Sequence record: ON528746
Reading direction: 5' to 3' (one strand)
DNA: 64,000 nucleotides
Source: Shigella phage ESh36
Shown: one piece after another, positions 12,903-13,293 of the stretch
Numbering within the stretch: position 1 is the first letter of the stretch
Layout of the letters: the number at the start of each line of letters is the position of its first letter
Program-made: the position numbers and the translations under genes
The notes under the pieces: generated by a model
Seen by the model: only the letters and a program-made list of their open reading frames with translations
What the model was told of the DNA's origin: nothing
The model's database searches: none

Positions 12903-12963
12903 TAGGGTAATAGTATCACAACTAAAACCCTATGTAAACAACTTTGTGAAATTATTTTAAATC
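12903..12963 (-). promoter_or_regulatory. early-promoter/stem-loop element (PeSL-like) upstream of the small membrane ORF
   Basis: 32-bp block ATGTAAACAACTTTGTGAAATTATTTTAAATC identical to the copy at 13262-13293; inverted repeat ATAGGGT/ACCCTAT encloses the -10 TACTAT; GTTTAC -35 at an 18-nt spacing. Confidence 0.55.
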
Positions 12964-13209
12964 TTCTAATCGTTTCTTCATCTTAGAACCATTTTTAGCA
13001 ATTTCTCCTGCATCGGAGCATAATGCTAAAAGCGCTTTAACTTTAGTTTGATCTCCTTTAAAAGACGAAGGATCGACTGCAGCAGCAAGTTCTTTAATAC
13101 GAGAGAAAAGACGCTCAGCTTCAGCTAAAGCCATTCCAAGCTTTACTTCCATACCGTGGGAAGATTCAATGATAGTAGTTTTTGTAGCAAACTCTTTGAA
13201 AGTTTTCAT
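12952..13209 (-). CDS. internal-protein-like small head protein at the T4 ipI position
   Basis: 85 aa; N-terminus MKTFKEFATK resembles the IP capsid-targeting leader, with IIE site nearby; directly downstream of 57B as ipI is in T4. Confidence 0.5.
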   Translation of the reverse strand: MKTFKEFATKTTIIESSHGMEVKLGMALAEAERLFSRIKELAAAVDPSSFKGDQTKVKALLALCSDAGEIAKNGSKMKKRLEDLK

Positions 13210-13230
13210 TTTATTTTCCTAATTAATTTT

Positions 13231-13293
13231 GATGAGATAATAGTATCACTACCTCATCAGCATGTAAACAACTTTGTGAAATTATTTTAAATC
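13231..13293 (-). promoter_or_regulatory. early-promoter/stem-loop element (PeSL-like) upstream of the ipI-position gene
   Basis: Same 32-bp block and GTTTAC-N18-TACTAT; inverted repeat GATGAG/CTCATC has a different stem sequence from the other copies while pairing is preserved. Confidence 0.55.

Follow-up and report, generated by a model that had tools for sequence, protein, structure and literature searches.

T4-type early promoters at gene-cassette joints of a Shigella phage and a possible RNA-level role of their hairpins

Features of the locus

The window, that is, the whole 64,000-nt stretch of DNA from Shigella phage ESh36 (ON528746) that was analysed, was assigned to Tequatrovirus and has 99% identity to Shigella phages ESh16/ESh34. 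In the region 12695-13293, the minus strand carries the end of 57B, the gene for the internal head protein Ip5 and the trna.4 homologue, and an early-promoter element precedes each of the latter two (Table 1). The N-terminal leader of Ip5 is MKTFKEFATKT (compare MKTFKEFTSTT of T4 ipI, and MKTYQEFIAE), and its PHROG is that of an internal head protein. Two side observations concern the neighbouring genes: 57B is annotated as the anti-CBASS protein Acb1, and the Shine-Dalgarno (SD) region of the trna.4 homologue, GGAGAATAAAA, matches the published RegB site consensus.

Table 1. Coordinates of the genes, promoters, repeats and hairpins discussed in the text
Feature	Position	Strand	Remarks
32-bp identical block, copy 1	13262-13293	-	57B last codons (GAT TTA AAA TAA), A/T-rich stretch, -35 GTTTAC
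Ip5 early promoter core (GTTTAC, TGn, TACTAT)	13240-13269	-	orthologue of the T4 ipI promoter; predicted start A 13233
Ip5-copy hairpin around -10	13230-13259	-	TGATGAGGTAGU / ACUAUUAUCUCAUCA, with G·U pairs; ends 10 nt before SD
Ip5 internal head protein gene	12952-13209	-	phrog_3499; named Ip5 in relatives; variable cassette between repeat copies
32-bp identical block, copy 2	12932-12963	-	Ip5 last codons (GAT TTA AAA TAA) through -35
trna.4 early promoter core	12910-12939	-	orthologue of the T4 trna.4 promoter; predicted start A 12903
trna.4-copy hairpin around -10	12902-12933	-	AUAGGGU / ACCCUAU; stability marginal
trna.4 homologue, 61-aa predicted membrane protein	12695-12880	-	ORF
e (lysozyme)-denV early promoter core	5212-5241	-	left half orthologous to the T4 ipIII promoter; predicted start A 5205
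denV two-tier hairpin	5191-5235	-	outer stem UUUCUCC/GGAGGGA; inner stem AAUUGUGA/UCACAAUU
denV (endonuclease V)	4770-5186	-	absent or elsewhere in gene order in some relatives
e.8-homologue early promoter core	9403-9432	-	no significant hairpin; predicted start A 9396
Canonical terminator-like hairpin	9562-9580	-	CCCTATC..GATAGGG + CTTTTTGG; 130 nt upstream of e.8 promoter
e.8 homologue	9096-9359	-	ORF
regB early promoter with SD-masking hairpin	2084-2136	-	UUUUCCUCUUGACUG / CAGUUAAGAGGAGAA; z -6.1
e.7 early promoter with -10-spanning hairpin	9058-9095	-	AUAGGCUCAU / AUGAGCCUAU; z -4.7
e.6 early promoter, without hairpin	8675-8703	-	motif and fold scan
alt.-3-position ORF early promoter with SD-masking hairpin	63203-63255	-	z -5.5

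An earlier note on this DNA described four minus-strand elements that share GTTTAC, an 18-nt spacer and TA(C/G)TAT. The pattern GTTTAC-N18-TA(C/G)TAT indeed has exactly four matches in the window, all on the minus strand and all being the promoter cores of the denV, e.8, trna.4 and Ip5 copies (Table 1). Only 0.02 matches are expected by chance and none of 100 shuffles reached four; a chance origin of the elements was ruled out by this count and by the fold z-scores given below. The 18-nt spacing holds when it is counted from GTTTAC, while in the sigma-70 register the spacer is 17 (TTTACA-N17-TACTAT). The count of four copies was, on the other hand, too low: the same promoter class was also found at 2107-2136, 8675-8703, 9066-9095 and 63226-63255. 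Seven promoter-like copies thus lie within 2.1-13.3 kb and one lies at 63.2 kb; the sole further motif match (16021-16048) is inside an ORF and is not followed by an SD and ATG. As had been noted, the 32-bp block GATTTAAAATAATTTCACAAAGTTGTTTACAT is identical at its two sites. Comparison of the copies together with a repeat search in the window identified a 69-nt repeat family, in which the pair within 12903-13293, flanking Ip5 on both sides, is 83% identical and the two Ip5-flanking copies are 61% identical to a third copy at 9392-9460. Outside the window, an exact-pattern scan of IMG/VR for further copies gave 8 loci only, and a 17-mer scan of metagenomes gave 120 loci, which were mostly chance matches and of which about 11 T4-like ones were usable.

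Promoter architecture and relationship to T4

Judged by sequence, these elements appear to be the regular T4-type early promoters of the phage, orthologous to T4's own, and not a special four-copy element. The T4 orthologues of the four copies are the promoters at the ipI, trna.4, e.8 and ipIII positions. More widely, the T4 early promoters (ipI, trna.4, e.8, ipIII, regB, e.7 and e.6) have near-identical sequences at the same gene positions, and the T4 and window copies are alike in GTTTAC, spacer, TGn, TAnTAT, stems and leaders. Three differences were found: the promoter after e drives denV in the window and ipIII in T4, the IP gene behind 57B is Ip5 in the window and ipI in T4, and the stem of the Ip5/ipI promoter is polymorphic, with G-C in T4 and G·U in the window. 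The T4 GenBank and RefSeq records carry no promoter features, and the literature search found no paper on genome-wide start sites in T4.

The -35 GTTTAC is present in all four copies. Those beginning at 12910, 13240 and 9403 have TTTACA-17-TACTAT with TG before the -10, and the denV copy has GTGA-TAGTAT. A/T-rich UP-like regions (GATTTAAAATAATTTCACAAAGTT, AAAAATTTTTTCACAAAACT and ATAAAAATCTATAAAGTT) lie 5' of the -35, and the A found 7 nt past each -10 is the predicted start (Table 1). The copies fit the published consensus of the T4 early promoters (UP/-35/TGn/-10, with GTTTAC at -36..-31), and in phage Lutter 30-bp promoters were marked at the same sites by another annotator. The stop codon of the upstream gene is located in the AT-rich part, and the SD and ATG of the downstream gene are located at the 3' end. 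The host sigma-70 RNA polymerase would read such elements as T4-type early promoters, composed of an A/T-rich upstream part, the -35 GTTTAC, a 17-bp spacer in the sigma-70 register, TGn and the -10 TAnTAT, probably starting at the A 7 nt downstream of the -10. Each promoter occupies the entire gap from the stop codon of one early gene to the SD of the next.

Cassette exchange among relatives

A different ORF lies downstream of each of the four copies, as the earlier note stated: denV, the e.8 homologue, the trna.4 homologue and Ip5. The proposal that these ORFs are mobile was found to hold for two of them: relatives have gained, lost or moved Ip5 and denV, but all of those examined for the region contain e.8 and trna.4. 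When gene content was compared across 11 relatives, Ip5, ipI, Ip6, denV, ipII/III, Ip4 and e.7 were found to be gained, lost or swapped, with the junctions inside the elements. The 57B-trna.4 interval contains ipI, Ip5, Ip5+ipI, Ip5+Ip6 or Ip6 alone, and the e-vs.8 interval contains ipIII-ipII-denV, denV-Ip4, IpIII-Ip4 or Ip4 alone, or has all of these deleted. The core of the earlier reading, namely early-promoter/stem-loop composites (PeSLs) at the joints where close relatives differ in their gene cassettes, was therefore upheld.

Several junctions can be located precisely. In T6, in which the region from e to regB is deleted, the e-side flank is joined to the regB promoter exactly at GTTTAC. 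The Ip6 insertion sites overlap at 12899-12919. The relatives L002/L249, which do not have Ip5, have precisely the sequence that recombination of one 32-bp block with the other would produce, and RB7 and L243 have chimeric promoters that combine the 5' arm of one type with the 3' arm of the other. Overall, the elements hold 9 of the 18 breakpoint clusters while accounting for 5.6% of the sequence. Relative to intergenic space alone, the enrichment is modest (about 7 of 10 in elements, where we estimate that about 46% are expected). Indels away from promoters were also found, at 11524/12044 and 9564/10237 (at terminators).

Stretches of 20-70 bp are nearly identical and equally oriented in many of the copies, and the homologous recombination machinery of the phage would therefore use the copies as joints, between which promoter-leader-ORF cassettes are deleted, inserted or exchanged. 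The junction of an Ip5 loss would fall inside the 32-bp block or in GTGATACTATTA.

Hairpins spanning the -10 region

According to the earlier note, the -10 region of each copy sits inside an inverted repeat. This was found to be correct for the denV, Ip5 and trna.4 copies, which beat dinucleotide shuffles, but not for the e.8 copy. The denV-copy hairpin (-18.1 kcal/mol, z -4.5) and the Ip5-copy hairpin (-14.8 kcal/mol, z -4.7; weaker in the DNA fold) were matched by 0 of 200 shuffles each, and the trna.4-copy hairpin is marginal (-13.2 kcal/mol, z -2.0 to -2.5; 3-6 of 200 shuffles fold as well). No significant inverted repeat was detected at the -10 of the e.8 copy (z -0.64; 50-54 of 200 shuffles fold as well). 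Among the four additional promoters of the same class, three have -10-spanning hairpins (z -4.7 to -6.1). The hairpin is thus not obligatory, since the e.8 copy and the e.6 promoter do without one. Rfam, searched for a known RNA family, gave only tRNAs in 1.5-15 kb.

In T4, z <= -3 was obtained for 44% of the early-promoter leaders and for 6% of the control leaders (Fisher p 6e-7). A hairpin over the -10 characterizes early promoters across the T4 genome and is therefore no marker of mobility as such. Over all 36 T4 leaders, structure is stronger in the sense than in the antisense strand (p 8e-4 on z-scores), and G·U pairs number 33 in the sense folds and 9 in the antisense folds. This asymmetry and the common G·U pairs indicate that the hairpins probably act in RNA.

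The stems do differ among the copies, as had been claimed: AATTGTGA/TCACAATT plus CTCC/GGAG, ATAGGGT/ACCCTAT and TGATGAG/CTCATCA. Such differences between paralogous copies are, however, no proof of compensatory change, which could be recognized only among the orthologous copies of relatives. Two orthologue series are of this kind: T-A / T·G / C-G in the inner stem of the denV promoter, and T-A / C·A / C-G in the stem of the e.7 promoter. In all 19 distinct close denV orthologues, the segment that pairs with the SD lies 5' of the predicted start, and at least seven different stems are used for this pairing. RNAalifold on a MAFFT alignment of the denV leaders put the stem types out of register and gave only 7 pairs, and the alignment was replaced by one anchored on CTCC/GGAG. 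In the anchored alignment, 90% of the cells are paired as compared with 73% in shuffles (0 of 500), and both sides change in 7 of 11 pairs; these values are to be read in the light of its construction from each sequence's own arms, which biases it towards structure, and of only about four independent stem lineages. In a Mosigvirus, the orthologous promoters likewise keep hairpins, and their stems are unrelated in sequence.

The relation to the SD varies among the promoters. The denV and regB hairpins are predicted to mask the SD on read-through transcripts, with a 5' arm located upstream of the predicted start of the internal promoter, whereas those of the Ip5 and trna.4 copies do not. At denV, it is the outer stem of the predicted fold that pairs with the SD (5191-5197). 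The 5' arm of denV in the window may derive from an ipII-type promoter, in which case its pairing with GGAG would be partly fortuitous.

Hairpins tend to be absent where a canonical terminator lies upstream: in T4, such terminators were found upstream of 6 of the 14 hairpin-less and 1 of the 16 hairpin-bearing promoters (p 0.03, in a small, exploratory test). The e.8 copy, with its upstream terminator and no hairpin, fits this pattern.

Possible role of the hairpins

On the whole, we consider it probable that the elements are T4-type early promoters which serve as cassette joints and whose hairpins would shield the cassettes from read-through transcripts. In most copies, the inverted repeat occupies positions that polymerase does not read, i.e., the spacer and the region after the -10. 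The predicted start coincides with the end of the 3' arm, and the hairpin would therefore form only in RNA reading through from an upstream promoter. At denV and regB, the 5' arm would be an anti-SD, and translation would then proceed only from the transcript of the gene's own promoter. The hairpins of the Ip5 and trna.4 copies do not reach the SD, and each would more likely be an attenuator or a protector of the 3' end of the upstream message. The more specific proposal, that the hairpins of T4-family early promoters generally provide insulation at the RNA level by masking the SD or capping the upstream message on read-through RNA, is tentative, and we give it slightly less than an even chance. 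Under it, the SD would be masked at denV, regB and about ten other T4 genes, an upstream canonical terminator would be an alternative solution, and each promoter-gene cassette would be autonomous in expression and hence could be shuffled without disturbing its neighbours.

The PeSL authors proposed instead that the stem-loops are terminators (PMC2839356, PMC4122927). The hairpins would then stop polymerase arriving from upstream promoters, as terminators or attenuators, and the cassette would be transcribed only from its own promoter. The location of the hairpins, intergenic and just past a stop codon, agrees with this, as does the scarcity of hairpins at T4 promoters with a canonical terminator upstream, which is likewise seen in L220 and the e.8 copy. 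One phi1 stem-loop in the PeSL literature also lowered lacZ expression as strongly as rrnB T1, but that reporter cannot tell termination from translational or stability effects. Moreover, a terminator scan matched none of the -10-spanning hairpins and no T-run follows any of them, so that canonical intrinsic terminators were rejected as their identity, and the covarying anti-SD/SD pairing at denV and regB is unneeded for termination. We regard termination as the less likely reading, though it is the strongest of the competing explanations.

Action of the inverted repeats in DNA seems improbable. They would form a cruciform, or a fold in single-stranded replication intermediates, that is cut by the phage nucleases endonuclease VII and gp46/47, and so become recombination hot spots at which cassettes are shuffled. 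Crossovers do map inside the elements, some of them between the two arms, the DNA folds of denV and Ip5 still beat shuffles (z -4.3 and -2.6), and the PeSL authors speculated on a stem-loop-binding recombination protein. The DNA energies are, however, small (-5.4 to -9.1 kcal/mol) with loops of 8-18 nt, short homology alone (the 32-bp perfect block plus about 20 bp) can account for the crossovers, and the hairpin-less e.6 promoter is also at a breakpoint (8663). The strand asymmetry further disfavours a cruciform: the sense strand is systematically more structured, and many G·U stem positions are A·C mismatches on the other strand. Least credible, with hardly any probability in our judgement, is that the inverted repeats have no function and are chance palindromes or recombination leftovers of related promoter copies. 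An inverted repeat is indeed missing from one of the four copies and from some further early promoters, and chimeric promoters with a weakened stem persist in natural isolates (RB7). Against this stand z-scores far below those of shuffles and control leaders, the compensatory changes among orthologues, the unrelated stems at the same gene positions in another genus, and the at least seven stem solutions for denV.

Relation to known systems and significance

The internal proteins and the neighbouring small genes are determinants of host range and anti-defence; IPI blocks a restriction system. Repoila et al., in a study of 1994 (EMBO J 13:4181) that is also treated in Arbiol 2010, reportedly described conserved early-promoter blocks of about 70 bp upstream and downstream of T-even IP ORFs, and these ORFs are said to share a conserved N-terminal leader and to be polymorphic in number and identity. 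The segment 12903-13293 is exactly that site (57B-IP-trna.4) and shows no difference of substance; the window represents another allele, with Ip5 alone.

The PeSL phenomenon has already been published (Repoila 1994; Arbiol 2010, PMC2839356; Comeau 2014, PMC4122927), the PeSL systems being phi1/RB49, PST/T4 and nt-1/KVP40 (Arbiol 2010; Comeau 2014). The composite order is the same here: stop codon, AT-rich stretch, strong early promoter, stem-loop, SD and ATG. Placement of stem-loops mostly between the -35 and -10 or overlapping the -10 is likewise shared; one was found in or next to the promoter in three of the four copies and not in the e.8 copy. Clustering in non-structural hyperplastic regions and siting at indels between close relatives are both seen, and deletions between neighbouring copies are represented by natural products (L002/L249 and T6). 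The PST/T4 consensus TTTACW-N17-TAYWAT fits the window copies. There are also differences: the phi1/RB49 stems are G/C-rich (GGGG..CCCC) whereas those of the window are A/T-rich, and the legend of the PST/T4 figure puts the stem-loops just upstream of the promoter whereas three of the four in the window span the -10. Finally, the published view is one of classical termination, whereas the present analysis points to an RNA-level role including SD masking.

In the long transcripts of T4 e, soc, 49 and I-TevI, a hairpin sequesters the SD; a promoter located within the 5' strand or beyond it yields a shorter transcript that lacks this strand and is translatable (Uzan and Miller 2010, PMC3014915). 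This geometry is also predicted for the denV and regB copies. The promoters of e, soc, 49 and I-TevI are late or middle ones and delay expression, whereas the internal promoter of denV and regB is early and would confine translation to the early transcript made from the gene's own promoter. That the e/soc/49 paradigm extends to early promoters, with cross-genus covariation, was not found spelled out in the literature searched. Integron cassettes are similar in being small, promoter-dependent units with short, conserved, partly palindromic joints and possible circular intermediates; they differ in that the window has no integrase or attC/attI, each cassette has its own promoter, and exchange appears to depend on general homologous recombination.

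Since a textbook feature has been re-identified, the value lies mainly in correct annotation: in a T4-like phage, early promoters and recombination joints are now assigned to the accessory region with the IP genes, denV and e. What we add is the generality of the hairpins among T4 early promoters, their probable RNA-level action, the predicted SD masking in the denV/regB class and the terminator-linked absence. Knowledge of the joints helps to foresee which cassettes are exchangeable, be it in nature or by engineering. If it is confirmed that the hairpins gate the translation or stability of read-through RNA, this would refine the published promoter-terminator view of PeSLs, and such RNA gating would provide a design rule for portable phage expression cassettes.

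Promoter elements and their T4 counterparts

As the earlier note had described, the motif GTTTAC-N18-TA(C/G)TAT occurs in four elements on the minus strand; it was found exactly four times in the window, against an expectation of 0.02. The identical 32-bp block reported there for two copies was also found: GATTTAAAATAATTTCACAAAGTTGTTTACAT is located in front of both the trna.4 and the Ip5 promoter. A repeat search of the window revealed a 69-nt repeat family, in which these two copies are 83% identical. The number of copies, however, had been set too low: the relaxed motif GTTTAC-N16-19-TANNNT provided 10 sites, without exception on the minus strand, and eight of them lie directly 5′ of a Shine-Dalgarno (SD) sequence and ATG.

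Matches to GTTTAC-N18-TA(C/G)TAT in the window, each copy being named after the gene that it precedes, with the A located 7 nt past the -10
Copy	Match	Strand	A (expected start, predicted only)
denV	5212-5241	-	5205
e.8	9403-9432	-	9396
trna.4	12910-12939	-	12903
Ip5	13240-13269	-	13233

In T4, nearly the same sequences occupy the corresponding gene positions: the sequence 5′ of ipI matches the Ip5 copy, that after gene e and 5′ of ipIII matches the left half of the denV copy, and counterparts also occur 5′ of trna.4, e.8, e.7, e.6 and regB. The published T4 early promoter, termed an 'über' sigma-70 promoter in the literature, consists of GTTTAC at -36 to -31, TGn, the -10 and an A/T-rich UP region; judged by sequence, the elements of the window have this architecture. 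A promoter scan placed them in the sigma-70 register TTTACA-17-TACTAT with TG, and in the annotation of phage Lutter the orthologous sites are marked as 30-bp promoters. The expected start, an A, coincides with the end of the hairpin 3′ arm.

A 2.5-kb query around the elements matched 730 phage records; Shigella phages ESh16 and ESh34 were closest, at 99.1% identity, and hundreds of Tequatrovirus genomes came next (95–98%). On the minus strand, the genes run in the order gene 1, 57A, 57B, an 85-aa internal protein, trna.4, trna.3, trna.2, a 171-aa ORF, the tRNA block, a 187-aa ORF, e.8 to e.2, nudE, e, denV, a 157-aa internal protein and vs.8; the 85- and 157-aa proteins are, respectively, Ip5 and Ip4 in annotations of relatives. 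Immediately upstream of the Ip5 and trna.4 elements lies the 57B homologue (13282-13737, minus strand), which some records annotate as the anti-CBASS protein Acb1, so that the variable internal protein (IP) cassettes adjoin a known anti-defence gene. Elsewhere in the window, a 568-aa ORF (49077-50783, minus strand) contains three PKD/Ig-like repeats of about 96 aa (49639-50514; 288-nt period, 78-79% identical at the DNA level) and is probably an enlarged Hoc-like capsid decoration protein.

Hairpins around the -10

Leaders were folded from the -35 to the ATG and compared with 200 shuffles. The earlier claim that the -10 lies within an inverted repeat in every copy stood for three of them, where the -10 is in or beside the hairpin loop: denV (-18.1 kcal/mol, z -4.5, 0/200 shuffles), Ip5 (-14.8 kcal/mol, z -4.7, 0/200) and trna.4 (-13.2 kcal/mol, z -2.5, 3/200). 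It failed for the e.8 copy, whose leader has no fold beyond chance (z -0.64, 50/200). Strong hairpins spanning the -10 were also found at the regB (z -6.1), e.7 (z -4.7) and alt.-3-position (z -5.5) promoters. Such hairpins are general among T4 early promoters: z ≤ -3 was obtained for 16 leaders of 36 candidates, as compared with 6% of control SD-ATG leaders (Fisher p 6e-7).

Compensatory stem changes, which the earlier note had proposed between the four copies, were found among orthologous copies: the inner stem at the denV promoter shows T-A, T·G and C-G, and the e.7 promoter T-A, C·A and C-G. In one Mosigvirus, the orthologous promoters (57B-IP, trna.4, denV and regB) form strong hairpins whose stem sequences are unrelated. 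Among IMG/VR sequences, a promoter 3′ of 57B was found at 13 distinct loci, 10 of which have a hairpin (z ≤ -2), with at least six stem types. To go by these comparisons, the hairpin is under selection. It was also found that T6 (10016), Sf21 (10730) and G8 (10874) carry an alternative to the trna.4 promoter of the window (12916-12933): the two spacers are block permutations (ATAGGGT-TTTAG-TTGTGA versus TTTTAG-ATAGGGT-AGTGA), and the same 3′ arm, ACCCTAT, pairs with both.

Probable action in RNA and two classes of hairpin

Taken over the whole set of 36 T4 leaders, the sense strand shows more structure than the antisense strand (Wilcoxon p 8e-4 on z-scores, 4.5e-5 on energy), G·U pairs in the significant folds number 33 in sense versus 9 in antisense, and folds with DNA parameters are weak (-5.4 to -9.1 kcal/mol). 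From these folds we infer that the hairpin acts in RNA. Classical intrinsic termination was considered and rejected, since the terminator scan found no T-run after any of the hairpins spanning the -10. In T4, a canonical terminator lies within 160 nt upstream of 6 of the 14 hairpin-less promoters versus 1 of the 16 hairpin-bearing ones (p 0.03), the terminator at 9562-9580 precedes the hairpin-less e.8 copy, and at one IMG/VR locus (L220) 57B is followed by a terminator and a hairpin-less promoter. Thus, the hairpin and the upstream terminator look like alternative ways to handle read-through RNA.

Two classes were distinguished. The first, which comprises denV, regB and about ten further T4 genes, has its 5′ arm in the spacer as an anti-SD. 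In all 19 distinct close denV orthologues, the SD pairs with sequence 5′ of the predicted start, by at least seven different stems. When denV leaders were aligned on CTCC/GGAG, 90% of cells were paired versus 73% in shuffles (0/500) and 41-59% when slid, and both sides change in 7 of 11 pairs, the alignment being made from each sequence's own arms and covering few independent lineages. The geometry is that of the T4 e, soc, 49 and I-TevI hairpins (Uzan and Miller 2010, PMC3014915); unlike those, the denV/regB-class hairpin encloses an early promoter. The regB SD is masked by different stems in two genera: TTCTCCTCTAGTTG/CAACTAGAGGAGAA versus TTTTCCTCTTGACTG/CAGTTAAGAGGAGAA (Mosigvirus WFL6982, 2552, and the window, 2084-2136). 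RegB is known to cleave its own SD (Uzan and Miller 2010, PMC3014915), so that read-through transcripts of regB would be protected as well as untranslatable.

In the second class (Ip5, trna.4 and e.7), the hairpins end 10-13 nt 5′ of the SD. The trna.4 SD region, GGAGAATAAAA (12881-12891, minus strand), located 12 nt downstream of the promoter hairpin, agrees with the consensus published for cleavage by RegB, GGAGRAYARAA, and structure inhibits RegB. Possibly, these SD-free hairpins would cap the upstream message after RegB cleavage.

Cassette exchange among relatives

In line with the earlier note, which regarded the flanked ORFs as candidate mobile cassettes, gene content between these promoters varies among close relatives, with junctions in the elements. 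Between 57B and trna.4, T4 carries ipI; the window, Sfk20, KRT47 and Lutter carry Ip5; RB7 carries Ip5 and ipI; T6, Sf21, GiZh and L14 carry Ip5 and Ip6; and an IMG/VR contig (L002/L249) carries Ip6 alone. Between e and vs.8, ipIII-ipII-denV is found in T4, denV-Ip4 in the window, Sfk20, Sf21 and GiZh, IpIII-Ip4 in KRT47, Ip4 alone in RB7, and nothing in T6, whose deletion fuses the flank of e to the regB promoter with GTTTAC as the exact joint. Ip6 is inserted at the shared GTGATACTATTACCCTATCAA (12899-12919), and the contig with Ip6 alone is the exact product expected from recombination between the two 32-bp blocks. The promoters of RB7 and of locus L243 are chimeric, with a trna.4-type 5′ arm and an Ip5-type 3′ arm, which indicates a crossover within the promoter core. 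The e.7 gene is replaced from its own promoter's -35 (9096) to the e.6-promoter leader (8663). Since the 32-bp block extends into the coding sequence, DLK-stop is the end of Ip5 as well as of 57B, and this shared end looks like a footprint of duplication.

Nine of 18 breakpoint clusters fall in the elements, whose share of the sequence is 5.6% (p 1.6e-7). Since this excess is modest against intergenic DNA only, and several indels lie outside promoters, at terminators (9564, 10237) and inside genes (11524, 12044), the junction sequences are the stronger evidence for exchange.

Other variable segments were also seen. The 187-aa ORF (9589-10152, minus strand; phrog_2280, function unknown) has an IP-like leader, MKTYAEFLTEAA, and is bracketed by canonical terminator-like hairpins (10247-10270 and 9562-9580); no early promoter motif was found for it. 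The segment from about 9564 to 10237, present in Sfk20, KRT47 and L14 and missing in T4, T6, RB7, GiZh, Sf21 and Lutter, looks like a cassette bounded by terminators, not promoters. The 171-aa ORF (11505-12020, minus strand; phrog_2290) occurs in the window, Sfk20 and Sf21 and not in T4, T6, KRT47, GiZh, RB7 or Lutter; its breakpoints (11524 and 12027-12045) are in coding sequence, away from promoter elements. Among 35 distinct IMG/VR T4-like loci, 22 have no promoter after 57B, among them L219, L224, L227, L229, L232-L241, L244, L245, L250, L251 and L253; at most of the 22, an IP-like gene has its start overlapping the 57B stop (..AAATGAAA..), suggesting translational coupling. The early promoter intercalated after 57B seems confined to the T4-like and RB69-like lineages.

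Relation to published elements

Promoter-early stem-loop (PeSL) elements were defined as a strong early promoter plus a stem-loop, mostly between the -35 and -10 or overlapping the -10; they group in hyperplastic regions, mediate indels and form mini-circles (Arbiol 2010, PMC2839356). The PST/T4 pair was then shown to have them too, its consensus being TTTACW-N17-TAYWAT (Comeau 2014, PMC4122927). As summarized by Arbiol 2010 (PMC2839356), Repoila 1994 described, at the two variable T-even IP loci, PeSL-like elements that consist of T4 early promoters and of weaker, A/T-rich stem-loops; 12903-13293 is one of these loci. The PeSL reading of the earlier note is thus essentially right and already known: what it recognized, correctly, is a known system present in a further T4-like genome. 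Three points, which may also have been published in Miller 2003 or Repoila 1994, go somewhat beyond Arbiol 2010 and Comeau 2014: the RNA-level evidence, SD masking at early promoters with cross-genus covariation, and the apparent exclusivity of hairpin and canonical terminator. The value is accordingly low as a discovery and moderate as a mechanistic refinement.
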